Part shown: one piece after another, positions 2,580 to 62,475 of the stretch
Layout: every line of letters starts with the position of its first letter
How positions within the stretch are numbered: position 1 is the first letter of the stretch
Assembly: GCA_000004695.1 (NCBI GenBank)
Contig: CM000151.3
Span: forward strand, 416,001-480,000
DNA length: 64,000 bases
Origin: Dictyostelium discoideum
Lineage: Eukaryota
Direction of reading: 5' to 3'
Notes under the pieces: model-generated
The model's input: only the letters and a program-made list of their open reading frames with translations
Databases searched by the model: none
What the model was told of the DNA's origin: nothing
Program-made: the position numbers and the translations under genes

Positions 2580-5500
2580 ATGAAAGTAATAAATATAATT
2601 TTATTAATAATTTTATTTATTATTAATTGTGAAAATGTAAAATCGATTGATTGTTCATACAAACCAGAAATGATTAAAATTAATTCTTGTAGTCTTCAAG
2701 CAAGTTTGGAAGTACAAGATCAATATTATTCATTTGAAAATGTATATATTGAACCATTTTTACTACCAATTAATAGTGAAAATTCTTTTTATTATAATTT
2801 AAATAATGGTATTGAATATACTTTAAATATTCAAAACAAGGGTTGTAATAATAATGTAACAGAAAAATTTAAACCAACTGGAATGTACTATGAATTAATT
2901 ACTCAACCAAAATGTATGAATACTTTATTTAAATTTAATCTTTTTTATTATTACCTCAATGGAAGTTCAATTACAATCTCGACAAAACAAGGTAATTTAG
3001 AATATTATAATTATGATAAATCATGTAAGGCTAATTTTGTAATTGTTCCTCAAAGTGTAACAAATGGTGTTGTTCAAAATGGTGCTGTGAAAATAGTTAA
3101 TCCAACATGTGGTTTCAACAATGGTAGTATAACTGTTGACTTGACAAAAGGCTATTCAAATGTCCGTTTATTCCGTTTCAATGAAGGTGAATTAGATGAT
3201 GAAGTTCAACCAAGTAATATACCAGGTTCATTTTTGAATTTACCTTATAATAGTTATGTGATTTCTGTAGAATCTGAAGAATGTGGTAATGAAATTGTAA
3301 ATATTGAACTTATTAATACTTTACCTACATTAAATGTTGAAATTAAAGAAGTTCCAAACTTTTTTGAAGATTCAACTTTTTCATTTTCATTATCATCTGG
3401 AGAACAAGGAATTTTAAATAGTACAAATGCTTTTGTTTTCGTTAATGAAAATGACGATGAGCCTATAAGTAATTGGACAGATTATACTGCCCGTTTCACA
3501 AGTGGAACTTTAGAATATGGTTATTATTATAATGTTGATTTTTTACCAGGCAATGAAAAATCATGTGAAACATTCGAATATGTAAATGGAGTGATTCCAG
3601 CATCCGTATTAAAGTATACAATTACAAAACATGGTGATAGTTGTTTAAATGACCTCCTATTGACAGTTTATCAATTTTCCAATAACCCAATTTCTTTGTA
3701 TGATTTCAATGCTGATAGTATGATGACATTTGGGGATGGTGGTAATACAACAGTTATACCATATAATAGAGATTTTTCATTACAAGAGAAATATGCAGGC
3801 CCAACCCAATACTTTTCAACCGTATATAAAGTTCCAACTTATTCACTTGTTGAAACGACAAAAGGAGGTTTAACTGGATGTTGGAGAACTTTTAATATTA
3901 CAATTAATGACTATGAAAGTTTAGGTGATCTAGAATTAGAATTTAATTACAAAACTGATTCTATTTACTATCCAGTAGATGGTGTTTTTATTGATATTCC
4001 AAGTGGTCCTTATAGAATCTCCTATTTTGTTGGAGATTGTGATACTAAATCATATTTCACTATTTTAAATTCTAAAGAAGATGAATGTAATCAAGATGTT
4101 ATATCCACTTCATATAGAATTCTTCAAAATGCTACATGTTCGGAACCTTATGAAGTTGAATTTACAGCATCAACTCCACTTGGTTTGGTTAGTTATAACT
4201 TGAGTGTTTATTCTCTTTCCCATGTTGATGATAGATATGAATTTCCAAATAGTTTAGCTTATGTTGATGTATTATATTATAATCCAAATACTTTAATTTG
4301 GGATGATAAAGAATTTAATATATCTATTGGACATGATGCAAAATGTTCATTCACATATGGTACAATAGAATTAGAAATACCAAATGATCCATATAATCCA
4401 AATATACAATATAATGTAAAAAACGTTTTTGGTAATGATGGTAAACCACTAAGAAGTGCTGGTCCAGGTTTAAATTATTTAATACCACCTGGTGAGAATA
4501 ATTTAATCGTTCAATATTTTTATGGTGGTAATTATAATAACATATGTTATAAATCAAAATCAGTTAACATTAATGCTGAAATATCAATTAAACCACAATA
4601 TACTTCAAATGCTAATACCGATTGTCAAACACCAAATGGTAAAATCATTATATCAAATTATCAAGCATTTACTAATATTACAATTGAATTATCAGATCAA
4701 CAATCATTCATAATTGCAGTTAATGGTGAATTAACCAATCTTAAAGGTGGTGATTACAATGTTTTCTTTGAATCAGAATCATGTAGTGGTTTTGTTACTA
4801 TCAATGTCCCAACATCTGAAGATAATGTTGAAATTGAAACATCAATACTTCAAAATCCATCATGCCTTGTATATTTCTCTCCAGGTAATTCCGATGGTAA
4901 AATTAAAGTTAATGTTAAAAAAGATGGTGTACAATTAGACAATTTAATAGTTTCAGATTTAGCTGATTCACATTCAGATAATAATGTTTTTATTGGTGGA
5001 AAGGTTGGTTTAAATTCATTAATGATTAAATCAGGTAATTGCACTTGGTATAGAGATGTCAATGTTGAAAAAATTGATGGCCCAATGTTTTCACTTGAAA
5101 CTCTACTCAATGAAAGTTGTGGTTGGCCAAATGTTTATAAATTAAATATTGGAAATCCAAATGTCGTCATTAAACAGACTAGTTATTCCGATAGTAATAA
5201 AAACTTTTATCAAGGTTCCTATTATTTTGTATTGTCAAGTAGTACTTCCTATTCCCTTCTACTTCAATGGAGTACAATTTGTTCAGAAAGTTTTAATATA
5301 CCAGCAAAAAATAATATTCAAGATTATCAAGAATATCCAATTCAATATGAAATTGTAAAAGCTGATAATTGTCATTCATTGAAAATTGATATTATTATTA
5401 AAAATATGAATGAATTTTCAACAATGTCAATTTTTAGTAGAGTACCAGAATCAATTAATTCAACACATGCAATTTTCAGAAATTTACCACCAAATAAATA

Positions 5501-6227
5501 TTACAATGTTGAGTATTTAAAAACTAAACCTTATTGTTATTCTTATCAACAAATTGGTGAATATGAAATTTCAAGTGGTTTAACAAAAGAATCTTTAAAA
5601 ATTAAAAAATCAAATGATATGTGTCATAACGGTATTGGTAAAATTGAAATTCAAACTCCATTGGATACTGATAATTATTATTATTCAATGCAAAAGATTA
5701 ATGGTTTAATGTCAGGTGGTTACGAAACAAATACTCATCTCACTAATGATAATGCTGATCAAGTTTTATCAAATTTACCAAATGGTATCTATTATATTAC
5801 TCGTATTTGTAAATCAATTTTAAATTGTTACATTAGAGAAAAGGTTGAAATTATAAGTGAAAATCCATCAATTCAATCAATTACAATTAATCACTCGTAT
5901 AGTAATAAAAACAATGGTACTGTAGAAATTAAATTAAATTATAATACAACTAAATCTGTAACTTTTGAAATCGTAAATACTCAATTATCAAATAATAATG
6001 GTATTTTCTCAAATTTATCTCCAAACAATTATCAAATTAAAATCACTATCACTGATAGAATGTGTCCTGTAACTTTATATGAAAATTTCAGTATCAATTC
6101 AATTCCAACACCAAAACCTGTAGATCCATCTAAAGATCCATCTGATGAACTTTCAACTTCAACTTTAATTCAAATTAATCATTTATTATTATTATTAATT
6201 ATTTTAATTTTAACAATTATTATTTAA
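2580..6227 (+). CDS. Large secreted/cell-surface glycoprotein, paralogue A (1215 aa). It has an N-terminal signal peptide (MKVINIILLIILFIINCENVKS), many N-x-S/T sequons, a periodic Cys motif (NPTCGFNNGSITV, CQTPNGKIIISNYQAF, NPSCLVYFSPGNSDGKIKV, MCHNGIGKIEIQTP, MCPVTLYENFSI) and a C-terminal hydrophobic tail (LLLLIILILTIII) consistent with a GPI signal or TM anchor.
   Basis: Single long ORF with AAAATG start. Signal peptide and C-terminal hydrophobic segment read directly from the translation. Clear paralogy to 6622..10584. Confidence 0.8.
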   Translation: MKVINIILLIILFIINCENVKSIDCSYKPEMIKINSCSLQASLEVQDQYYSFENVYIEPFLLPINSENSFYYNLNNGIEYTLNIQNKGCNNNVTEKFKPTGMYYELITQPKCMNTLFKFNLFYYYLNGSSITISTKQGNLEYYNYDKSCKANFVIVPQSVTNGVVQNGAVKIVNPTCGFNNGSITVDLTKGYSNVRLFRFNEGELDDEVQPSNIPGSFLNLPYNSYVISVESEECGNEIVNIELINTLPTLNVEIKEVPNFFEDSTFSFSLSSGEQGILNSTNAFVFVNENDDEPISNWTDYTARFTSGTLEYGYYYNVDFLPGNEKSCETFEYVNGVIPASVLKYTITKHGDSCLNDLLLTVYQFSNNPISLYDFNADSMMTFGDGGNTTVIPYNRDFSLQEKYAGPTQYFSTVYKVPTYSLVETTKGGLTGCWRTFNITINDYESLGDLELEFNYKTDSIYYPVDGVFIDIPSGPYRISYFVGDCDTKSYFTILNSKEDECNQDVISTSYRILQNATCSEPYEVEFTASTPLGLVSYNLSVYSLSHVDDRYEFPNSLAYVDVLYYNPNTLIWDDKEFNISIGHDAKCSFTYGTIELEIPNDPYNPNIQYNVKNVFGNDGKPLRSAGPGLNYLIPPGENNLIVQYFYGGNYNNICYKSKSVNINAEISIKPQYTSNANTDCQTPNGKIIISNYQAFTNITIELSDQQSFIIAVNGELTNLKGGDYNVFFESESCSGFVTINVPTSEDNVEIETSILQNPSCLVYFSPGNSDGKIKVNVKKDGVQLDNLIVSDLADSHSDNNVFIGGKVGLNSLMIKSGNCTWYRDVNVEKIDGPMFSLETLLNESCGWPNVYKLNIGNPNVVIKQTSYSDSNKNFYQGSYYFVLSSSTSYSLLLQWSTICSESFNIPAKNNIQDYQEYPIQYEIVKADNCHSLKIDIIIKNMNEFSTMSIFSRVPESINSTHAIFRNLPPNKYYNVEYLKTKPYCYSYQQIGEYEISSGLTKESLKIKKSNDMCHNGIGKIEIQTPLDTDNYYYSMQKINGLMSGGYETNTHLTNDNADQVLSNLPNGIYYITRICKSILNCYIREKVEIISENPSIQSITINHSYSNKNNGTVEIKLNYNTTKSVTFEIVNTQLSNNNGIFSNLSPNNYQIKITITDRMCPVTLYENFSINSIPTPKPVDPSKDPSDELSTSTLIQINHLLLLLIILILTIII

Positions 6228-6621
6228 AAAATAAATAATTAAATAAATTTTTCAATTTTCTATTGAAAAAAAAAAATGTTTATATCTTTTTGTTGAAAAT
6301 CAAAATTAAATAAAAAATTAAAAAATTAAAAAAATCTGAGGTGGGTGATACAACCACTCTTGTCACATCACACCAACACCCTTTAAAAAAAAAAAATAAA
6401 ATAAAAAAAAAAAATAAAAAAAAAAAAAAAAAAAACAAATTAAATTTTTATTAAAATTTAAACCACTAACACAATAACAATAACAACAACAAAAATAAAC
6501 CACTACCACAACAACAAAAAACAAAAAAACTTAAAAAACTAAAAAAATAAAAATTAAATTTTAATTACATGTAATTTAACTTTTTTAATTCAAAAAGATA
6601 TATATAAAAAAAAAAGATATA

Positions 6622-9600
6622 ATGAAATTGTACAAATATATTTTATTTTACATATTTTATATAATTATAAATAGAGAAATAAATGTTGTAAAATCAGTAA
6701 ATCAATGTACATCACCAATACTAGATCTAATAATAAAAGATTCATGTGGTTTAGATAGTTCAAAATTAATTATAAATCAAGATGATTTTTCATTACTTGA
6801 TATTATAAATTTATCACAATTATCACCACCACAACAAAAGCCACTACTACAACCAACTTATAATATAAATAATAAAGCATTTGAATGGAATTTAATTGAT
6901 GGTATAGATTATTTAATTGAATATAGATATAAGGGATGTAATGGTAATGGTTATACTAATAAACAAATTGTGAAATCAAATGGAATGTATTATAAACTTA
7001 AAACTCAACCATTATGTTTATACACTCAATTTAATTTTACAATTTATAATTTTAATTCATATGGTGATTCAAAAGAATTTCAAGCAACACCTTCAAATAT
7101 AAAAATTTCAAATCAAGATAATACATGTACACTCAATTTCTTCATTACTCCAATTAGTATAACAAAAGGTGCACTTCAAAATAACATTATATCATACACC
7201 CATCCAACATGTGGTTTTAAAAATGGTACAATTTCAATCACAATTCCCAAATCATCATCATTTTCAAATTATCATTTATTTTTTAAAAATGATTTAAATT
7301 TACAAAATGAAATTAAATCTATATCACCTTCAACCACAGATACAGAAACAGAAACAGAAACAGAAATGGAAACAACTATAAAATATATAAATTTAGATTC
7401 AGATGAATATTTAGTTTTTATAGATTCAGATGAATGTGGAAGAGAGAAAATTAAAATTAAACTTGATAATGTTTATCCACAAATTAATTTAGAATTAAAT
7501 CATTTTTCAAATAGTTTTTATAATAATTCAATAATGTCATTCAATGATAATCAATCATCAATTAATTTTAATAAATCAAATTTAGTATTATTTTATGGTT
7601 CACAAAATTCAAAATTTATAAAAAAAGTACAACAACAACAATTGAAAAATGATAATTTTCAAGATGTTTTTTATAAGGATTTAACTTTTGGTTATTATTA
7701 TAATAAAGATTTATCAATTAATCCAACTAACCAATTATTACCATCAATTTGTATATTTCAACAATATAGTAGTAATACAAGATCATTACCACAAATTAAT
7801 TATACAATAATAAATGGAGGTGATGAAAATAATAGTTGTTTAAATATGATTAAAATTGAAATTAACTCATTATATGGAGAAAATGATGAAATTATATTAA
7901 CGTCAATTACTGATAATTTAATTTACAAAATTGAAAAATTAAATATTAGTAATAATAATAATAATTATTATTATTATTATCAATCATATATTCCATACAA
8001 TAATGAATTTAAAATTACTTCTTTAATTGGTAAAGGTGATATTTATTTTTCAACAATTTATAAAAAACTAACTTATAAAATAATTGAAACTTCATCAATT
8101 GAACAAATTGGGTGTTGGAAAACATTTAATATTACAATTTATGATTTTCAAGATTATAAAGATTTAAAATTAATTGGTTCAAATGAAGTACTAATTTATC
8201 CATCAGTTGAAGGTGTATTTATAAATGTACCTTCAAATCAATTAACATTATCCTATTATTACGGTGACTGTATTACAGAGTCAAGAATTAATATTGCTAT
8301 AAATGATAATGATCATTCAAATTTTGGTTTACATTCAGATTATAATCCATTAGATAATGTTAAAATTGATTATTCAATAATTAAAAACTCAACTTGTTTT
8401 ACACCAGCCATTATCCAATATTCAGTAAATTCACCACTTGGCATTTTAAATGGTACTTTTGAAACTGACGATGAATATGAAAATTTTATAAAATTTCCAA
8501 ATTCACTTTGTTTTATACCATTATCATATTCAACACCAAATACAACACCAACTACATCACCAACTACAACAACATCAATACCTATTGATTTTAGTTATAA
8601 AGTAATTAAAACCCCATCTTGTTCAATTGATCAGTCAGGTTTAATTTCAATAAGATTAAATGATAGAAACTTTGTTAATTCAAATTTAATTTATAAAATT
8701 GAAAGTAATGGTGAAATTTTAATTCAACATCCATCAAACCATAATAATTATTTCATTAAATCTGGTGAAAATAAAATTAAAATTACTTTAAAAATTGGTA
8801 ATAAATTTTGTGTATCATCAATACAAAAATCAATTAATATTCCAAAGATAAATTCAATTAATCCAAAAGTTTTAATTACACCAATTACAAATTGTGAAAA
8901 TTCAAATGGTAAAATTGAAATTTTAAATTATCAAGAATTTACAACAATTGAATTATATTCAATAATTAATAATAAACTTTTAAATTCAATCAATAATGGT
9001 AGTACATTTTATAATCTTGAATCTTCAAACTATATATTAAATTTTAAATCACTAATTTGTTCAGGTTCAATAATAGTTAATGTACCATCATCATCTTCAT
9101 CAAATGATAAAAATAGTAAATATAAAATTACACCAACTATAATTCGTAATCCAACTTGTAGTAATGGTAATAGTTATTCAGATGGTAGAATTGGTATATC
9201 ATTGATTAAAGATGGTAATAAAATTAATAATTTTACAATTTCAAATATTAATGATAATCATAATTATTATTTTACAAATGGTATTTATGAAATTGCAACA
9301 GTTGGTTTAAATCAGTTAATAATTAAATATGGTTCATGTAAGTGGTATGAAAATATTACATTAGAATTTGATGATCCTAAATTCAAAATTCAAAATTTAT
9401 TTAATCAAACATGTGGTTTCAATTATAATTTATATAAAATCATTTCAAATAATTCAAATGTTCAAATTAATAAAATTACCTATGTCACTGCTACTGATTA
9501 TACAAATTATCAAAATGAACATTTTATTTCAAATCCTTTTAGATTCCCATTAATTTATACAATTCGTTGGAATGATTTATGTGAAAATACATTCACACAA

Positions 9601-10584
9601 TATTATGATATTAATAATAATAATGATATAAATAATCAACAAATTAATGTAAAATATGAAATTGTTTATCCAAATGATTGTTTATCAAGTTCATCATCAT
9701 CACCATCATTCAAATTTGATATTATTATTAAAAATATGAATTCATTTAAATCATTACTTTTATATGGTAGAGTTCCAACAATATCAATAAATTCAACTCA
9801 TTCAATTTTTAAAAATGTTGTACCTTCAGAAACATATGAATTCACTTATACTTCATTGTATGGTTGTGATGGTATTTTTTATATTTATAAAGACGATTTA
9901 CCAAAAACAAATGTTAATCAAAAATTAGATATTAAAATTACAAATGATATTTGTCATTCTGGTCTTGGTTCAATTCAATTTTCAAATTTTGATAATGATA
10001 ATTATTATTATTATTTAAGATCATTGAAATTAAACTATAAAGAAAATGATAATGATGTCGATCATTCATATAGTATACCAATTTATAATGCCAATAATAA
10101 TAATAATTATAATAATAATATTAGTAATAATAATAATAATTACACATTCAATTTAAAAGTTGGAACTTATAATATTTATCGTGGTTGTAAATCAATGATT
10201 AATTGTATAATTGATGAAAAAATAACAATTGGTAATGATGATCCAGTAATTGAATCAATCAATCTTTTAGATTCTTTTAATAGTTCAAAAAATGGTTCTG
10301 TCGAGGTTAAATTAAATTTCAATTCATCATTTCCAATTGTTTATGAAATCGTTGGAACAAAATTTTCAAATTTAAATGATGGTAAATTTTTAAATTTACC
10401 ACCAAATTCATATGAATTAAAAATAATTATCACTGATAAAATGTGTCCAATCGTCTTGACAAAGAACTTCACCATTAATTTAATTCCAACCGAGAAAACA
10501 AATAGACAACCTTCAAATTCAACTATTCTAAAATTTAATTACTTATTATTTTTAATTGGATTTTTAATTATAATTATTTTTTAA
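6622..10584 (+). CDS. Large secreted/cell-surface glycoprotein, paralogue B (1320 aa). Same architecture as 2580..6227. Shared blocks include YTHPTCGFKNGTISI, DSDECGREKIKIKL, GCWKTFNITIYDF, CENSNGKIEILNYQEF, NPTCSNGNSYSDGRIGISLIKDG, DIIIKNMN and MCPIVLTKNFTINLIPTEK, with a C-terminal hydrophobic anchor. Contains an in-frame (ACAGAA)n repeat coding (TE)n and a poly-Thr/Pro stalk.
   Basis: Single long ORF. Colinear motif-by-motif similarity to the upstream gene, so this is a tandem duplicate in the same orientation. Confidence 0.8.
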   Translation: MKLYKYILFYIFYIIINREINVVKSVNQCTSPILDLIIKDSCGLDSSKLIINQDDFSLLDIINLSQLSPPQQKPLLQPTYNINNKAFEWNLIDGIDYLIEYRYKGCNGNGYTNKQIVKSNGMYYKLKTQPLCLYTQFNFTIYNFNSYGDSKEFQATPSNIKISNQDNTCTLNFFITPISITKGALQNNIISYTHPTCGFKNGTISITIPKSSSFSNYHLFFKNDLNLQNEIKSISPSTTDTETETETEMETTIKYINLDSDEYLVFIDSDECGREKIKIKLDNVYPQINLELNHFSNSFYNNSIMSFNDNQSSINFNKSNLVLFYGSQNSKFIKKVQQQQLKNDNFQDVFYKDLTFGYYYNKDLSINPTNQLLPSICIFQQYSSNTRSLPQINYTIINGGDENNSCLNMIKIEINSLYGENDEIILTSITDNLIYKIEKLNISNNNNNYYYYYQSYIPYNNEFKITSLIGKGDIYFSTIYKKLTYKIIETSSIEQIGCWKTFNITIYDFQDYKDLKLIGSNEVLIYPSVEGVFINVPSNQLTLSYYYGDCITESRINIAINDNDHSNFGLHSDYNPLDNVKIDYSIIKNSTCFTPAIIQYSVNSPLGILNGTFETDDEYENFIKFPNSLCFIPLSYSTPNTTPTTSPTTTTSIPIDFSYKVIKTPSCSIDQSGLISIRLNDRNFVNSNLIYKIESNGEILIQHPSNHNNYFIKSGENKIKITLKIGNKFCVSSIQKSINIPKINSINPKVLITPITNCENSNGKIEILNYQEFTTIELYSIINNKLLNSINNGSTFYNLESSNYILNFKSLICSGSIIVNVPSSSSSNDKNSKYKITPTIIRNPTCSNGNSYSDGRIGISLIKDGNKINNFTISNINDNHNYYFTNGIYEIATVGLNQLIIKYGSCKWYENITLEFDDPKFKIQNLFNQTCGFNYNLYKIISNNSNVQINKITYVTATDYTNYQNEHFISNPFRFPLIYTIRWNDLCENTFTQYYDINNNNDINNQQINVKYEIVYPNDCLSSSSSSPSFKFDIIIKNMNSFKSLLLYGRVPTISINSTHSIFKNVVPSETYEFTYTSLYGCDGIFYIYKDDLPKTNVNQKLDIKITNDICHSGLGSIQFSNFDNDNYYYYLRSLKLNYKENDNDVDHSYSIPIYNANNNNNYNNNISNNNNNYTFNLKVGTYNIYRGCKSMINCIIDEKITIGNDDPVIESINLLDSFNSSKNGSVEVKLNFNSSFPIVYEIVGTKFSNLNDGKFLNLPPNSYELKIIITDKMCPIVLTKNFTINLIPTEKTNRQPSNSTILKFNYLLFLIGFLIIIIF

Positions 10585-11491
10585 ATATTTAAAAAAAAAA
10601 AAAAAAAATAAGATATATAAAATAAATAATATAAATACATAAACAAAAAAAAAAAAAAATCCCATAGTTTTGTAAAATAAAAAAAAAAAAAAAAAAAAAT
10701 CAATATTCAAAACAGATAAAATTTAAAATAATATATAATTATTAAGAGCTATTTGTATTAAATTATAAAAAATTAAAAAGTTTAAAAAAGTTTTTTTAAT
10801 TTTGAATTAATGATAACTAAATTTAAATTACTATAGTAAATTGGGAATTAAAAAAAAAAAAAAAATTTATTTAGTTTGACTAAATAAAAAAATATTCTTT
10901 TATTAAAAAAAACCAATCAACAATCTGTTTAATAAAAGGAAGAATATTAAAAGTCTAAAAAAAGAGTTTTTTTTTTTTAATTATTATTAAATTATAATAA
11001 ATTTCAATTATTTTAAGATTACCAAATAAAAAAAACCATCCAAAAAATCTTAAACTCTGGACAATACAGCCCAAATGGCTTTTAAAAAAAATAATAAAAT
11101 TATTTATTTAAAAAAAAAAAATAATTCTTTTTTTTTATATTATTTTTTTTTTTTTTTATTCTTTGTAATAAAAACAGATAATTGATAAGATACGCTGAAA
11201 CTCTTTTTTTTTTATTCTTTTTTATTCTTTGTAATATTCTTTTGTTATATTAAAATCAAAAAACCGAATCTGTTTCGAAATAAACAATACGATATGTATA
11301 AAAAAAGTTTTTTTTTTTTTTTTTTCTATTCATTTTTTTATTCTTTTTTTTTTTTTTTTCTATTCATTTTTTTCTAATTATTTTATTCTTTGTAATATTC
11401 TTTTTTCCTTTTAAAAAAAAAATATCTAAAAAAAAAAAAAAAAAAAGTAGATTTTACCCAAGACCCACAGATTTCGAAAAACAGTTATTTG

Positions 11492-11526
<35 letters not shown>

Positions 11527-11654
11527 AAACTTTAAAAATAAGAAACGAAAAAAAAAATGACATTTTTGATTTGATATCTTTTTTTTCGTAAAAATAAGAA
11601 AAATAAAACAAATCAAAAAAAAAAAAAAAAAAATTTTTATTATCAATTATTTCA

Positions 11655-11689
<35 letters not shown>

Positions 11690-11692
<3 letters not shown>

Positions 11693-11831
11693 AAAAAAGA
11701 AAATGGAAACTGTGATACTGAACCTATTCCCTTATCAATAATATTATCTAATGATAATGAAAATACAAACGAAACCATCATAGAAACCAATAATAAAAGT
11801 GATACCAGCGGTAATGATAATAATAATAATG

Positions 11832-11866
<35 letters not shown>

Positions 11867-13366
11867 GAGAATAAAGAAAAAGAGCATCACCATCATAAAG
11901 TACCTATTTTTGCCTATGTAATATTAGGATTTGCATTATTAGCAATGTCAAGTAGTGGTGTTGCATTAAAATCAATTGAAGCACCGCCACTTCTTAAAGC
12001 AAGTTGGAGACTTCAATCAACATCAATATTATTATTTTTTGGATTAATCTATGAAGTTACAATGATTTATAACTTTCATAAAAAGATTATACAAAAGTTA
12101 CCAAAATCTTTAATTTTATTATTACCAAATAAAATTTCAATTATTTATAATAATTTTGATAAATTAAAAGAAGAAGAAGAACAAGAACAAGAACAAAATG
12201 AAGATGAACAAAATGAAACAAATTACAATAATCAAAAAAAAGAAATTGAAAAAGAAAAAAATAAAGAAGAAATTAAAATTAAATTATTTCAAAGGAAAAC
12301 TATTTTAATTTTACTTGGTACAGGGATAATCCTTGGATTTCATTTTTCATTTTGGATTGTAAGTGCGATTTTTTAATTTTTCATTTTAGGTCGTAGATGC
12401 GATTTTTTAATTTTTTAATTTAATTAATTTATTATAATATAAAGATATCTTTAGATAAAACCACTTTAGCTCACAGTTTATTATTTGTAACTTCATCACC
12501 AATTATGATAGTTTTGGTAATGATAATAAGAAGAGCACCAATTTCAAAAGGTGAAATTATAGGTTGCATTTTAGGTTTTATTGGATTAATAATTACATTA
12601 TTCGATTCTTTATTTTTTAATAATAATAATAATAATAACAATAATGATGATAGTATTGGTAGTGGTAGTGGTAGTAGTAGTATTGGTAGTGGTAAATCTA
12701 ATCAAAATCCAACAGTATATGGTGACTTTTTAGCATTAATGGGTGCAGTATGTATTGTTTTTTATTTATTTGCAGGTTCATTACTTAGAAAATGGATGCC
12801 ATTATTTTGTTATGCATTTCCTGTAACTTTTATAGCTTCAATATTCTGTTCAATTGCATCATTAATTTTTGAAGAAACAGATTTATTCATATTTGGTTGG
12901 GTTTCAAAATCTTTTATATTATTAACTTGTTATTTAGCTGGTAAGTTTTGATTTTTTATTTTATTTTCTTATCATTTTAAAATTAATTTAATTAACTTTT
13001 TTTTTTTTAAAAAAAATACAAATAAATTTAAAATAGTTTTCCCTGGATTTATTGGGCATACGGGAATGAACGCGATTATTAAATATATTGAACCTGTTGT
13101 TGTAAGAATTTTATTTTATTTTTAATTTTAGTTTTCTTTTTTTTTTCTTTTTTTTTATTTTTTTTTTTTTATTAATAATAAAACAATTTTTAAAAATTTA
13201 TAAATCTATAGATTAGTGTTACATTATTATTAGAACCTCCAATTGGATCATTAATGGGATACGTAGTTGGTGTTGAAGGTTTACCAACATTTTTTACATT
13301 CATTGGTGGTCCTTTCATTATTGGTGGTTGTTTATTAGTAACAATTTCATCACATCTCAGAAATAA

Positions 13367-13452
<86 letters not shown>

Positions 13453-13466
13453 CACAACAAAACTAA
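11690..13466 (+). CDS. DMT-superfamily (EamA-like) multi-pass membrane transporter with a C-terminal poly-Gln tail. Four exons: 11690..12358, 12445..12940, 13037..13101, 13212..13466.
   Basis: Three ORF-track pieces (11690, 12505, 13254) joined by GTAAGT donors at 12359 and 12941, GTAAGA at 13102, and acceptors aaag|12445, atag|13037, atag|13212. Phases are consistent (0,1,0). Translation gives about 10 hydrophobic helices with EamA-like GDFLALMGA and PIFAYVILGFALLAMS segments. Exons 2/3 read ...YLAG|VFPGFIGHTGMNAIIKYIEPVV|ISVTLLLEPPIGS. Confidence 0.7.
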
Positions 13467-13592
13467 ATATTAATAATAATAATAGTATAATGAATATTAA
13501 TAATAGAATAAAGAACAACACTAATTAATTTTACGATGTTGTCAAATTTCAATCTATTCATATGAAATTTTCTTCCAAAAAAGGTTTTATTC

Positions 13593-13642
<50 letters not shown>

Positions 13643-14035
13643 GAATTTTAAATAATTGATAAAAAAAAAAAAAAAAAAAAAACCAAATAAAAGTAGTATA
13701 AACCATTTCTTTTCTCAAACCTTTTAAAATCCTAAAAGCCTATCTTAATTAGGAAATAGCTATTTCCATATGGAAAGAAAAAAAAAAAATTAAAAAAATT
13801 AAAAAAAAAAATTAAAAAAATTAAAAAAAAAAAAATTTCGAAAAAGTTTCTAAAAATGGTAAAAAGAAAAAAAAAAAAAAATTTAGAAATTAATAATAAA
13901 ATGTATTTTTTTTTTTTTTCCTCTGTAATTATTTTCAAAAACAATAAATAATAAATAATAGATAAAAAAAATATCTAAACAAATTAAAATTTTTCAAATT
14001 TCAAATAAAGAAATAAAAATAAACCTAAAGAAAAA

Positions 14036-14353
14036 ATGAGAAGAAGAGGACCAATGAGAAGAGGACCAGTTATAGTTGCACCAAGAAGGGGTGTAGGTTT
14101 AGGTACATTAGCAGCTGGTGTTGGTGTTGGTATGTTAGCATCAAGTGCTTCACGTCCCCATTATGCACCTCCACCACCACCACCACCACAACAAGTAATT
14201 CATACATATCAACAACTACCTCCACAAGTAATTGTTCAACAACCAGGAGTTCAACCTCAAATGATATTCGATCCAGCAACAGGACAATACTATCAAGTTG
14301 CTCAACCACCTATTGTTCAAACTACAACTGTCCAAAATCCTTATGGATATTAA
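14036..14353 (+). CDS. Small (105 aa) Gly/Ala-hydrophobic then Pro/Gln-rich protein: MRRRGPMRRGPVIVAPRRGVGLGTLAAGVGVGMLASSA...PPPPPPPQQ...NPYGY.
   Basis: Isolated ORF that is not low-complexity-only. Local GC is well above the intergenic background. A 3'UTR-like AT-rich tail follows. No homology recognised. Confidence 0.45.
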   Translation: MRRRGPMRRGPVIVAPRRGVGLGTLAAGVGVGMLASSASRPHYAPPPPPPPQQVIHTYQQLPPQVIVQQPGVQPQMIFDPATGQYYQVAQPPIVQTTTVQNPYGY

Positions 14354-17780: not shown

Positions 17781-18039
17781 CTTACGCATAAACAGTACCA
17801 TTTGGATATCTACCACCAGCCCAACAATCATCAATGTTAACATATGTATAACCAGCGTCAGCCATACCATTTGATACCATTGCTTTGGCAGTGTTCATGA
17901 TAACGGATTCATTGATATTACATGCATAGAAATTCCAACTACTCCAACCCATTTGTGGTGTTAAAGCTAAACCATTATCCAAAGCATTTACTGTTGCTAA
18001 TGCAATTGTTGCTAATAAAGTTGCAGCAATTTTCATCAT
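16789..18039 (-). CDS. Glycoside hydrolase family 27 alpha-galactosidase / alpha-N-acetylgalactosaminidase with signal peptide. Two exons: 18039..17786 and 17692..16789.
   Basis: Exon 1 [42 protein letters not shown]...YVNIDDCWA is the canonical GH27 N-terminus (LDNGLARTPPMGWNSW...DDCW). Exon 2 has [34 protein letters not shown]...[11 protein letters not shown]...[11 protein letters not shown]...[13 protein letters not shown]...AINQDPLG. Donor gtaagt at 17785 (phase 2), acceptor ttttaag|17692. Confidence 0.9.
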
Positions 18040-18641
18040 TTTTTTTTTTTATTTTATTTCTTTAAAAAAATTTAGAATGAATAAAAAATAATAAAAAAAA
18101 AAAAAAATGAAAAAAAAAAAAAAATAAAAAAAAATTCAATTTTAACTTTTTTTTTATAAAATTGATTGAAAATATCTAAATTTTATTTTTTTATTTTTTT
18201 TTTTTTAAATTTCAATTTTATTCACAAGCATGGTATCCCAATCAAAAATACTGGTGGGAAAAATGAAAAAAACCAAAAGATATTACAAACAAATCGGTCA
18301 AGCTTGAAGAAAAAAAAAAAAAAAAAAAAAAAATGAAAAAATGAAAAATAAATAAATCACTAAAAAAAATAAAAAAAAAATTTAGTAACAAAAGATATTT
18401 TGATAACAATTGTTGGAAACGTCTTAAAGTCGAACTTAATTTTTTTTTATTTTGTTATTTGAAAATGATGATGATGGCATTATTTTTATTTTATTTTTTT
18501 TTATTTTTTTTTAATTTTTTTTTTTTGACACTTTTAAAATTTTCAAGACGTCCAAAAAATTATTTTTTTATTTACGAATTTTTTTTTTTTTTCCTCTAAA
18601 GTTAATCATTACACTGTTATAATATTTACTTCTTATTTAGA

Positions 18642-35801: not shown

Positions 35802-38753
35802 TTATTGAATTAAATAAAAGAGAATTGAAATAATAGTAATTAATATGAATAATGATGATGATGATGATGATGATGATAGTTTTGAGCTATCACTATTATT
35901 TTTATTATTATTATCATCATTTCCTTTATACACATCAATATCAACATCAAATTCAATTAATTTACTATTGAATATCATTTTTAAACCTATTGAATCTTGA
36001 TCAATTATTGCTTTTGAAGTACATAGATAAAAACCAGTACCGTTAGAAATATTAATTTTATTTGTACTTTCCAAGTTAGCAATACATTGTAATTTACATT
36101 TAATAGCTCTTCGAGAACCATTTGGAAGAACTATACTTGCATCCATTGAATCAGTGAAACCAATACCACTAAGTTTAATTGAAAATCCATCTTTATCATT
36201 TTTAACTTGGTTGATTTTTGTGACATTTGGATCTGAATGATTTAAAATTACATTTGAAAGTACTAAATTTGGACCAATATAAACTGATACATTAAATGGA
36301 GTATATGAAATTTGAGGTGATGAAACTAATAAAACGTCATCAGTTGAATTTGCTAATTTTCTAGTTTCTTTATTATTAACTAATACCTTAACTTTATTTT
36401 CATTTAGTTTTGTTATGAATCTATTACCAGAAATTAAAAGTATACCATTACAATCATTATTAATTACTTTTTTAACTATTGGTGGTAGGGTTGAATTAAA
36501 TCCTGAAAGCAAATTATTTTCATCGACAACCATTTCAATTGGACCATTATTAAATGAATCATTATTTCTAATTTGAAATTGATTATTATTTAATAATTGA
36601 ATTTTTGAAGTGATATTAACATCATTATAATATACTTGAATCACTTTTTCAGAATTACCAAAATTATTACCATTGATTGTAATCATATCTTTTTTAGCTG
36701 AAATTGTTAAAAAATTAATAATTGGTTGTGCATATGAAAATTGATTATTTAATACAAGTGAATTATAATTTAATATATAATCTTTATTAATACCAGTACC
36801 AGATGGCATTTGACAAGTTGTTATATATTTATTTTTTGATGATACCGGAATTGAACATTGAATTGATTTTCTGGAACTATTAATAAATATATTTGGAATA
36901 ATTTGTTCATTGAATGGATAAGTAATATAGTAAATTCCAATTTCTAATTTACCATTTTCAGTTGTTGGATTACTAATTGAATTAATTTTTAATGATGGTA
37001 ATGTAGACATTGAAATTGGTATTGAATTACTTAAAATATTATTACGGTTTATTGTGATATTAAATAATTTAAATTTTAATAATGGTAATTCAAATGTTAA
37101 ACTTTTTTCATCATTTGAAACTTCAAACTTATCAATTAAAATCTTTTCATCTATACCAATACCAGTGATTTCAATAATTGAATCATTTGATCCTCTACCA
37201 ATATTAGTACCATTTAATAATACTATACTACCATTTAATAAAATTGCATTATTTAATGATGGTACATTATATGTAAATGTATTATTATTACTAACAGAAT
37301 CACAACCATCAAATGTAATAATAATTGGTAAATTTGAACCACCTTGATTTGCAGGACCCAATATACATTGAATTTCAGTTTGATTTGAGGTAATGTTTTT
37401 ACAAAATAAATCACCAATTTTAACAGTTGGCATAGATGAATATAAAAATGAACCTTTAATTGTAACAATACCACCATCATAATATGTAATTGAATTTACT
37501 GAAGTGATAGATGGAGGATAAAAACAATAAATAAAATTCTTTTCCATTGAAACATCATTTACTTTAATATTAATTGACATTTGACCTGATTCAACTCTTC
37601 TATAATTACTAACAATAATTTGTGTATGATCTCTATTAATTATGAAATTATTTTGTTTAACACCATCAAAATAGATTTCTTGAACTTTAAAAGCATTAAG
37701 ATAGAAATTATAACCATCTATGAATACATCTGAATATTTTTGATTATAACTGACCATTGTAATTATTGGTGGTGCATATGAAAAATTTTGATAATATAAA
37801 TAGTTAAAAGTAATTAATTTTGATGAACCAGAACCTGCTGGAAAACTTACTGTGAGATTACTAACATCAAATAAGGGATCATCGAAATTACCTTTAATAA
37901 TTGCATATGAAAATAGAGAAGGTTGTGGAGGAGCTGTTACTCTAATATAGTTCATTATATTCGGTTTTGGATCACTTACATAATCTTCATATAGAAATCT
38001 TAAATAACTACCAGTGATAATAATCTCATCACCTTGTGTTGAAGGGAGTTTATTAAATTTAAATATTGGTTTTGGAGTTAATTTTGATCCAATATAGAAA
38101 TTATTACAATCTTCCCAAGGTATTGAAAAATGTCTGACACATACTCTGCTTGATGAGCTACCCCATAATCTATTAATTGGTTGTTCAGATTTGAATACAC
38201 AGTATCTAGTTTGATTAATAATTGTATCACAATCGAAATAATTATTTGAATAGTTTGATATTGGTTTATCATTATTGTACATAATAAATCTTGTAAAATA
38301 ACATTCTTCACTAGTAGTATCAAAAGTATAAACTAAAGAAGTTTCATTATAAATTATATCTTTTACTGGTCCAATTCTAAGTTTTTTATCATTTGGAGGT
38401 AAAACAGATGGTGATCCAGTCATTGAAAGATTTTTAACTAATGTATCATTAATAAGCTTAAATGTAACAGTAAATTTTTGATTTACCAATGATGGTGGTA
38501 ATTTAAAAGTCATTTTCATCTCGTTGATTGATCCTTTAAATTCACTGATTTTATAAAATTGTCCATTACTATCATTTAATTCAATAATTGTTTTGTTTTC
38601 ATTTCCAAGATCAAAACCATGTATTTCAACAATACCATTTGGTAAATAAAATCCAGTGTCCAATTGAAGTCCTGAAATTATTGTAAAATGATTAAAAAAA
38701 GATAAAGAAATTAAAAATAATAAAATAATTTTATATTTAGTTTTAGAAAACAT
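35802..38753 (-). CDS. Secreted cell-surface protein (983 aa) with signal peptide, repeated IPT/TIG-like beta-sandwich modules, Ser-rich stalk and C-terminal hydrophobic anchor (SSSSSSSSLFILITIISILFYLIQ). Possibly a Tgr-like adhesion/recognition family member.
   Basis: MFSKTKYKIILLFLISLSFFNHFTIISG signal. Repeats such as PPSITSVNSITYYDGGIVTIKGSFL... and ...SISAKKDMITINGNNFGN... resemble the IPT/TIG 'P.I..i.P..G...GGT.itI.G.nF' consensus. Many N-glycosylation sequons. Confidence 0.7.
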   Translation of the reverse strand: MFSKTKYKIILLFLISLSFFNHFTIISGLQLDTGFYLPNGIVEIHGFDLGNENKTIIELNDSNGQFYKISEFKGSINEMKMTFKLPPSLVNQKFTVTFKLINDTLVKNLSMTGSPSVLPPNDKKLRIGPVKDIIYNETSLVYTFDTTSEECYFTRFIMYNNDKPISNYSNNYFDCDTIINQTRYCVFKSEQPINRLWGSSSSRVCVRHFSIPWEDCNNFYIGSKLTPKPIFKFNKLPSTQGDEIIITGSYLRFLYEDYVSDPKPNIMNYIRVTAPPQPSLFSYAIIKGNFDDPLFDVSNLTVSFPAGSGSSKLITFNYLYYQNFSYAPPIITMVSYNQKYSDVFIDGYNFYLNAFKVQEIYFDGVKQNNFIINRDHTQIIVSNYRRVESGQMSINIKVNDVSMEKNFIYCFYPPSITSVNSITYYDGGIVTIKGSFLYSSMPTVKIGDLFCKNITSNQTEIQCILGPANQGGSNLPIIITFDGCDSVSNNNTFTYNVPSLNNAILLNGSIVLLNGTNIGRGSNDSIIEITGIGIDEKILIDKFEVSNDEKSLTFELPLLKFKLFNITINRNNILSNSIPISMSTLPSLKINSISNPTTENGKLEIGIYYITYPFNEQIIPNIFINSSRKSIQCSIPVSSKNKYITTCQMPSGTGINKDYILNYNSLVLNNQFSYAQPIINFLTISAKKDMITINGNNFGNSEKVIQVYYNDVNITSKIQLLNNNQFQIRNNDSFNNGPIEMVVDENNLLSGFNSTLPPIVKKVINNDCNGILLISGNRFITKLNENKVKVLVNNKETRKLANSTDDVLLVSSPQISYTPFNVSVYIGPNLVLSNVILNHSDPNVTKINQVKNDKDGFSIKLSGIGFTDSMDASIVLPNGSRRAIKCKLQCIANLESTNKINISNGTGFYLCTSKAIIDQDSIGLKMIFNSKLIEFDVDIDVYKGNDDNNNKNNSDSSKLSSSSSSSSLFILITIISILFYLIQ

Positions 38754-58533: not shown

Positions 58534-62172
<3,639 letters not shown>

Positions 62173-62475
62173 CACGTGATATTACTATTTAAATTTATTT
62201 ATTTATTGATTAATTTATTTGTTTCTTTTATTTTATTTTATTTTATTTTATTTTATTTTAATATATTTTATTTTAATTTATTTTATTTTATTTTTTTTTT
62301 TTATTTTTTTTTTTTTTTTATTATTGAACAAAAAAAAATAAAATAAAAGAAAATAATATAATATAATATAATATAAATATATATATATTAATATATATTA
62401 ATATATATTAATGTATTTTTTTTTTTTTTTTTTTTTAATTGTATGTTTTTGTGTGTGTCAGTTGTTTTAAGTTTG

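Follow-up and report, generated by a model that had tools for sequence, protein, structure and literature searches.

What do two long neighbouring genes of Dictyostelium discoideum, both annotated as 'hypothetical', encode, and in which circumstances might the amoeba use them? The genes are found in a stretch of 64,000 nucleotides of chromosome 2 of strain AX4 (hereafter the window; its base 1 corresponds approximately to chr2:416,001), which is AT-rich, with ~22% GC. Gene 1, DDB_G0271480 (Q55B15), is a single-exon open reading frame (ORF) of 1215 aa on the plus strand at window positions 2580–6227 (annotated chr2 418580–422227). Gene 2, DDB_G0271482, is a single-exon ORF of 1320 aa on the same strand at 6622–10584 (annotated chr2 422622–426584). 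According to the ORF coordinates, they are separated by an intergenic spacer of 394 bp (6228–6621), and both ORF translations are identical to the AX4 proteins of these names. The predicted mass is ~135 kDa. The two proteins align colinearly over their full length with 32% identity (E = 1e-157) and are true full-length paralogues, in agreement with a first-pass annotation made from the sequence, which had described two same-strand neighbours of ~1200–1300 aa sharing ~30–35% identity. In full-text literature searches, no paper naming DDB_G0271480 or DDB_G0271482 was found under their gene or UniProt identifiers.

The reading that we favour, and to which we would give a probability of about 0.6, is that the two genes form an old tandem pair whose products are probably glycosylphosphatidylinositol (GPI)-anchored rods of ~14 immunoglobulin (Ig)-like domains, part of them of the SprB type known from bacterial adhesins and of bacterial origin, serving adhesion or recognition in a condition that has yet to be sampled. 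This reading starts from the homology of the repeats to bona fide SprB repeats, which is found at the profile level, in both directions and in register with the repeats.

The Repeat Unit and Its Relationship to SprB

The first-pass annotation had described each protein as ~8–10 repeats with a period of 100–130 aa, each centered on a single cysteine in a recurring 'NP(T/S)C..NG.I' context, and had recognized no named domain in them. Much of this description has to be revised. The CysA-type positions, i.e., the first cysteines of the units, are spaced 69–94 aa apart, with a repeat period of ~80–90 aa, and a second conserved cysteine per unit follows 53–67 aa after the first in a 'Y-x-h-x-h…C' context. 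The latter motif is present in nine copies in gene 1 and six in gene 2, against ~1.4 in shuffled sequences. The literal form NP[TS]C-x2-3-NG-x-I has a single occurrence in gene 1 and none in gene 2, while relaxed CysA forms occur five to seven times per protein, a count reached by 222 of 2000 shuffles for gene 1, which is thus not above them, and by 36 of 2000 for gene 2, which is modestly above. The cysteines themselves are periodic, nearly all of them being invariant among 16 close family members and 13 across 22 distant dictyostelid members.

A repeat hidden Markov model built from eight hand-cut units with MAFFT suffered from poor alignment and gave mostly circular matches, and profile-profile comparison of family sub-alignments (hhalign) was used instead. 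It links U1, U3, U6, U7, U9, U10, and U11 at 73–96%, with U6 as the hub of the internal repeat network. Mutual homology is thus found for seven units out of ~12, the remaining ones being not demonstrably the same repeat. In gene 1 (all units and terminal features given here and below are on the plus strand), the most canonical SprB-type unit is U6, at aa 670–748 (4587–4823), with Cys682 and Cys735. The SprB-type Ig-like unit U1 (aa 164–247; 3069–3320; Cys177/Cys235), U3 (aa 422–499; 3843–4076; Cys434/Cys487), U9 (aa 918–997; 5331–5570; Cys931/Cys986), and U10 (aa 1002–1094; 5583–5861; Cys1015/Cys1077/Cys1083) are linked to U6 at 90, 95.8 (E = 7e-9), 73, and 89%, respectively. So is, at 90%, the SprB-type U11 (aa 1095–1174; 5862–6101), which has Cys1162 and in which CysA is replaced by serine. 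U7 (aa 749–834; 4824–5081; Cys762/Cys821) is linked to U1 at 83%. In gene 2, the units aligned with U1, U6, and U11 of gene 1 are located at aa 186–282 (HPTCGFKNGTISI…; 7177–7467), aa 747–828 (TNCENSNGKIEI…; 8860–9105), and aa 1210–1294 (10249–10503), respectively.

Regarding the nature of this unit, the Pfam SprB model (PF13573) scores 19.3 bits on the whole gene 1 protein and 21.1 bits on isolated U1 (E = 2e-4 to 9e-4), below the gathering threshold (cut-off 28); it has no match on gene 2 and scores 16 bits or nothing on seven other family members. A profile of nine aligned family members was compared with 1.84 billion representative proteins, without a word index and at E ≤ 1e-3. It yielded 237 matches of two kinds, namely colinear proteins of ~1000–1400 aa and long bacterial proteins matched in 5–33 separate stretches. 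The best 147 of the 237 matches comprise ~29 colinear proteins that are eukaryote-like by composition and more than 100 of the bacterial multi-stretch type. Names were looked up for 20–22 of the 237 matches; among these, all 11 eukaryotic matches with a species name are dictyostelids, from Tieghemostelium (T. lacteum), Synstelium, D. purpureum, D. dimigraforme, D. discoideum, Polysphondylium violaceum, and Heterostelium (H. album), and two further matches carry no species name.

The bacterial matches bear Pfam SprB repeats (up to E = 1e-72, in nine stretches) together with sorting domains of the type IX secretion system (T9SS). On such SprB-bearing proteins, the family profile reaches E = 2e-41 (P0029, Pfam SprB E = 1e-72) and E = 4e-53 (P0027). 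A broader dictyostelid profile matches ~90 proteins named 'gliding motility-associated' or 'T9SS type A/B sorting domain', with E down to 8e-83, from Flavobacterium, Chryseobacterium, Chitinophagales, Saprospiraceae, and others. Most bacterial matches align on U6; bacterial matches also extend through U7 and cover profile positions 1020–1140 (U10), and residues 46–80 of one bacterial protein (P0039, Pfam SprB 38.8 bits) align to the first half of U11. At the residue level, the alignments with the bacterial proteins exhibit a common pattern of cysteine, glycine, and tyrosine. In the reciprocal direction, a profile of bacterial SprB units is matched by hhalign to U6 at 92% over 70 columns (E = 6e-7), to U11 at 92%, and to U1 at 71%. 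Judged from the profile matches to SprB-bearing proteins (E = 4e-53 to 8e-83), the repeat is a divergent SprB-type Ig-like domain, and its earlier description as belonging to no named domain can be dropped. SprB also stands among the domain abbreviations in a survey of dictyostelid and amoebozoan G protein-coupled receptors (PMC10445921); going by that list, domain tools have therefore apparently detected SprB in at least one other amoebozoan protein.

Architecture of the Encoded Proteins

Each gene would encode a secreted, probably GPI-anchored surface glycoprotein made of one string of ~14 Ig-like β-sandwich domains. At least seven of these would be divergent SprB-type units of ~80 aa, in which a first cysteine in 'C-x3-NG-x-I-x-I' is followed by 'nG-x-F-x-nL-x-G-x-Y-x-h-x-h' and then by the second cysteine.

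In a hydropathy scan, no segments are strongly hydrophobic except the N-terminus of gene 1 and the very end of each protein. The former corresponds to a predicted signal peptide at aa 1–21 (MKVINIILLIILFIINCENVKS; 2580–2642) with a putative cleavage site. The N-terminal leader of gene 2 is below the hydropathy threshold and was read from the sequence instead. The signal peptide and hydrophobic C-terminal anchor of the first-pass annotation are thus recovered at both C-termini and at the gene 1 N-terminus, but not, by hydropathy, at the N-terminus of gene 2. Both C-termini consist of small residues, a short spacer, and a hydrophobic tail of 13–14 residues with no cytoplasmic residues. The GPI-signal-like region of gene 1 (…SDELSTSTLIQINHLLLLLIILILTIII; 6147–6224) ends in a hydrophobic tail of 14 residues, and the corresponding tail of gene 2 (…SNSTILKFNYLLFLIGFLIIIIF; 10510–10581) has its hydrophobic segment at the extreme C-terminus. 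This layout matches a GPI attachment signal, and the hydropathy scan together with the reading of the sequence suggests that both proteins are probably GPI-anchored. Neither has a Pfam match to the T9SS sorting domains CHU_C (PF13585) and Por_Secre_tail (PF18962). N-x-S/T sequons, which had been described as dense, number 19 in gene 1 and 26 in gene 2, slightly below the 21.7 ± 4.0 and 30.1 ± 4.8 of composition-matched shuffles, and their supposed density is put down to composition.

The full-length AlphaFold model is all-β, with a pLDDT (predicted local distance difference test) of 60.5. In the models, the units appear to adopt an Ig-like β-sandwich fold of 7–9 strands, and the ectodomain would comprise about 14 such domains. 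At the putative distal tip, the N-terminal region of gene 1 (aa 22–168; 2643–3083) has five conserved cysteines and at least one predicted Ig-like β-sandwich. The best structural match in the PDB (Foldseek) is GhpA, with E = 3e-15, followed by contactin, DSCAM, and similar Ig-like strings. An adhesion-type molecule is a sensible reading because a secretory leader, an all-β Ig-like ectodomain, and a GPI-type tail occur together. By the same features, the sequence fits the earlier description of divergent duplicated extracellular proteins.

Distribution Across Dictyostelia

The ~14-domain layout and the cysteine framework are kept across Dictyostelia, where the family forms at least ~29 clusters at 50% identity; the pair belongs to this Dictyostelia-wide family, which is absent from Pfam and in which domain order is kept as well. 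Like the pair itself, these clusters are annotated as nothing more than hypothetical proteins. D. cf. discoideum (1222 and 1339 aa) and D. citrinum (1194 and 1355 aa) both have the tandem pair, in unchanged order, gene 1 being 75% identical to its counterpart in the former and 60% in the latter. Since orthologues are also found in D. firmibasis and D. dimigraforme, the duplication that separated gene 1 from gene 2 is old. At a distance of ~60 genes lie further paralogues, namely DDB_G0271238 and a gene next to it. In the assembly GCA_054859385.1, the deposited models of the gene 1 orthologue (10001–13561; P0016, P0018) begin at an internal methionine (MIKINSC…) and for this reason lack a signal peptide; the frame runs further upstream, with a tblastn match from 9959.

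Anchors vary among family members, which have either a GPI-type tail or a transmembrane segment with a cytoplasmic tail. Across Dictyostelia, the transmembrane-anchored subfamily (P0031, P0034, P0036, P0042, P0045/P0169, P0046, and P0081) displays a conserved C-terminal motif, F-(T/Q/S)-G-G-(K/R/Q/H)-x3-(L/I)-D-x-F, which may be a sorting or adaptor-binding signal. P0045/P0169 is DDB_G0288437, labelled 'MRH domain-containing' in UniProt.

Because dictyostelids are the only eukaryotes among those checked and the sequence similarity between bacterial and dictyostelid proteins is strong, the module can be proposed to derive from an ancient transfer. It would have been acquired from Bacteroidota, as prey bacteria, by the dictyostelid lineage before its radiation.

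Expression and Selection

Both genes are almost silent in growth and asexual development. Gene 1 reaches 1.5–1.9 transcripts per million (TPM) in vegetative cells and less than 0.1 TPM in cup, stalk, and spore cells, and gene 2 does not exceed 0.22 TPM anywhere (Kin et al., 2018). The two genes are listed a second time in that dataset, presumably on its sheet of genes with too little signal for testing ('NA_genes'). Throughout 24 h of development, gene 2 is represented by 0–4 reads at every time point in tables where gene 1 has no entry (Rosengarten et al., 2015). Kin recognition operates during this period, and the developmental expression expected of a kin-recognition family is not seen, both genes staying at or below 0.22 TPM in the three differentiated cell types. 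On Bacillus subtilis, gene 1 is down ~five-fold relative to axenic medium (log2 fold change −2.37, adjusted P = 7e-6; Lamrabet et al., 2020). Neither protein was found in the life-cycle proteome files, and the paralogue DDB_G0271238 is silent in vegetative cells.

The upstream neighbour DDB_G0271478 (1–1927, minus strand) is also essentially unexpressed, with 0 reads and ≤0.02 TPM, and its rate of evolution matches that of gene 1. Several annotated pseudogenes are present in the surrounding chromosome region, which, together with this quiet neighbour, may therefore be a transcriptionally quiet domain.

With regard to selection, the ratio of nonsynonymous to synonymous divergence (ω) was estimated by the pairwise Nei-Gojobori method with codons paired from global alignments. 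It amounts to 0.57–0.69 for gene 1 and 0.31–0.47 for gene 2, every comparison being significantly below 1 (z = 3.3–8.4), and to 0.34–0.74 for the unrelated upstream neighbour. Both genes are fast-evolving yet under purifying selection, much like their neighbour. The highest window values of ω, 1.0–1.4, are located in the first 100 codons of both genes, as estimated from noisy 100-codon pairwise windows.

Elevated intraspecific polymorphism, for which the first-pass annotation had proposed a survey, was rejected as a property specific to this locus. Between AX4 and GCA_054859385.1, in a comparison covering very few strains, both genes have a synonymous divergence (dS) of 0.07–0.09 and an ω of 0.31–0.42, and the flanking gene has a dS of 0.088 and an ω of 0.34. 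Gene 1 of the divergent 'D. discoideum' assembly is 92.6% identical to that of AX4 (7.4% of residues differ), and an unlinked family member is 94.7% identical. Both dS and ω are thus the same as in the unrelated gene upstream, which leaves no locus-specific excess of polymorphism; the flanking gene and the unlinked family member diverge equally. Since all three genes of the locus and the unlinked family member differ alike, GCA_054859385.1 is best regarded as a divergent lineage. Assemblies labelled D. discoideum with the locus-tag prefixes ACTFIR and ACTFIW have a dS of ~0.08–0.09 to AX4 across the locus and a residue difference of ~5% in the unlinked gene. Such divergence seems far above the expectation within the species, and these assemblies may represent a cryptic lineage.

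Proposed Function and Its Alternatives

The most likely class of function for the pair is adhesion or recognition under conditions that have not been sampled so far. The proteins would be extended, disulfide-braced rods, with the fast-evolving, membrane-distal N-terminal domains touching the ligand. Since standard growth and asexual development do not make use of the genes, these would act in some other setting, e.g., in the sexual macrocyst cycle or on particular prey or substrates.

Several points weigh against this reading. In the hhalign comparison, neither the N-terminal region nor five other, β-rich units can be recognized as copies of the repeat. On both proteins and on seven further members, all Pfam and NCBIfam models stay below threshold, and no chain was matched in single-sequence and profile searches of PDB sequences. 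The low confidence of the structural model makes the domain boundaries uncertain at aa 250–345 and 905–1005, and noise affects the ω values that would mark the tip. The transfer from Bacteroidota is probable on the grounds of distribution and similarity, and the GPI anchor, the disulfides, the surface location, and the binding activity are predictions from sequence. The very low expression, finally, may mean that the genes are of little importance in AX4. The first-pass annotation had named a known domain and a lack of elevated polymorphism as what would count against its proposal, and this is largely the case, the repeat being a divergent SprB-type domain; SprB, however, is an adhesin module and not a housekeeping domain.

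More specific or competing explanations can be ranked, with the sexual cycle and the binding of prey or substrates ahead of decay and of kin recognition. The pair might be surface glycoproteins for adhesion or fusion of gametes or at the macrocyst stage, used in the sexual cycle only. Silence in growth and asexual development, combined with purifying selection and unbroken ORFs in four or five species at least, would be expected under this explanation, and the fast divergence of the pair, with ω highest at the distal tip, is what reproductive surface proteins typically show. A point of reference is gp138, described in the titles of Fang et al. (1993) and Aiba et al. (1997) as a surface glycoprotein involved in sexual cell fusion. 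The gene pair may resemble it in size and anchoring. However, no homologue was found under the gp138 name, and literature searches gave nothing linking the gene pair to gp138. Restriction to the sexual cycle is unlikely when taken as an explanation by itself.

A vegetative receptor for prey or substrate, in the form of a rod of adhesin domains of bacterial type that would attach during feeding to ligands on bacteria or soil surfaces, is unlikely to a similar degree. The domain type derives from bacterial adhesins, and the expression of gene 1 is detectable only in vegetative cells and responds to B. subtilis; but this expression is very low and falls rather than rises with bacteria, vegetative cells express neither gene 2 nor DDB_G0271238, and the proteome files contain neither protein. 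Somewhat more doubtful is a bolder combination, according to which an SprB module, taken up from Bacteroidota prey by the dictyostelid ancestor, became a fixed 14-domain family with GPI or transmembrane anchors that is kept in every dictyostelid group, the present genes being a young and fast-evolving branch set aside for a life stage other than growth and fruiting-body formation and engaged, most plausibly, in recognition or fusion of macrocyst gametes.

It is improbable that the genes are decaying duplicates, i.e., transcriptionally dead members of an expanded family on their way to becoming pseudogenes. Near-zero expression in all sampled conditions, a relatively high ω (up to 0.69 in gene 1), and the pseudogenes annotated nearby would agree with decay. 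Yet ORFs of 1200–1355 codons are unbroken in AX4, other D. discoideum, D. cf. discoideum, D. citrinum, D. firmibasis, and D. dimigraforme, ω is significantly below 1, and the framework cysteine, glycine, and tyrosine residues are invariant. Least probable is a self- or kin-recognition pair like TgrB1/TgrC1, whose polymorphic ectodomains would distinguish co-aggregating strains: the genes are adjacent and divergent, encode extracellular Ig-like proteins, evolve fast between species (see the 75 and 60% identities of gene 1), and lie 25 kb from a true Tgr gene, but dS and ω are those of the unrelated neighbour, ω is below 1 throughout, IPT/TIG and Ig_TgrO1 were not found by Pfam scan in either protein, the arrangement is a same-strand tandem and not a divergently transcribed pair, and expression is essentially absent in aggregation and later development. 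From the original proposal of an adhesion or self-recognition family, the adhesion-type part is accordingly kept, and the self-recognition part finds no support. An attractive but unsupported candidate is thereby removed from the search for further self-recognition loci.

Other Features of the Window

The Tgr gene is an ORF of 983 aa on the minus strand (35802–38753), a genuine member of its family, which served as a positive control in the window, with Ig_TgrO1 at E = 6e-22 and IPT/TIG at E = 7e-20. Downstream of gene 2, a 3.6-kb stretch (10635–14266) is missing from GCA_054859385.1 (where the corresponding site is at ~17986–18105). It carries a gene for an EamA-like multi-pass transporter (ORFs 11690–12376 and 12505–12951), and both D. 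cf. discoideum and D. citrinum have the stretch. A long ORF on the minus strand (58534–62175) encodes a poly-Q/poly-N protein from CAA/CAG runs, and these runs account for the extreme GC skew (0.4–0.7) at the right end of the window.

Comparison with Known Systems

Among dictyostelid surface proteins, TgrB1/TgrC1 share with the pair their nature as large, Ig-like, neighbouring, and fast-diverging surface glycoprotein genes. They differ in having IPT/TIG and Ig_TgrO1 domains, to which the Tgr gene of the window is matched at E = 1e-20 to 1e-22. A Tgr pair would also be expected to be expressed in development and to be extremely polymorphic, and neither property is seen in gene 1 and gene 2. A precedent for a dictyostelid extracellular protein built from a bacterial surface-adhesin repeat is colossin A (colA). 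Colossin belongs to another domain family, Cna_B; its paper describes hundreds of repeats and expression in slugs. It figures on a published list of 16 candidates for horizontal transfer, on which SprB-type proteins do not appear.

GhpA, the 'grappling hook' of Aureispira (PDB 9flp, 9fly, 9flw, and 9flv), is likewise an extracellular Ig-like string and belongs to the T9SS of Bacteroidota. It has no match at the sequence level with the family profile, and, given the low model confidence, its TM-scores against the pair are not meaningful, contactin, DSCAM, and titin scoring nearly as well.

The closest comparison is with the SprB adhesins of the Bacteroidota T9SS, e.g., SprB of Flavobacterium johnsoniae. 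SprB acts in gliding motility. With the pair it appears to share a unit of ~80 aa repeated head to tail in a long extracellular rod, the unit starting with 'C-x-G-x2-[ND]G-x-I-x-h' and ending with '…G-x-F-x-x-L-x-x-G-x-Y-x-h-x-h-x-D-x-x-x-C'. Unlike the SprB adhesins, the pair is eukaryotic; its export would rely on a signal peptide and a tail of GPI type in place of the T9SS C-terminal sorting domain. It has ~12–14 domains in a fixed, position-specific order among paralogues, whereas SprB has tens of near-identical repeats, and it has diverged too far to reach the Pfam threshold. Through the link to SprB, a fold can be assigned to the family, together with a probable class of function, that of an extended adhesin, and a probable origin in bacteria. 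Few bacterial adhesin modules are listed as having been reused by social amoebae, colossin being the known case, and the family is a further candidate. Should a role in the sexual cycle or in prey binding prove true, the family would open a new way into surface interactions of Dictyostelium that are as yet poorly understood. In comparison with these systems, the pair and its family are real, Pfam-dark, and adhesin-like, a eukaryotic variant of a known bacterial adhesin repeat.

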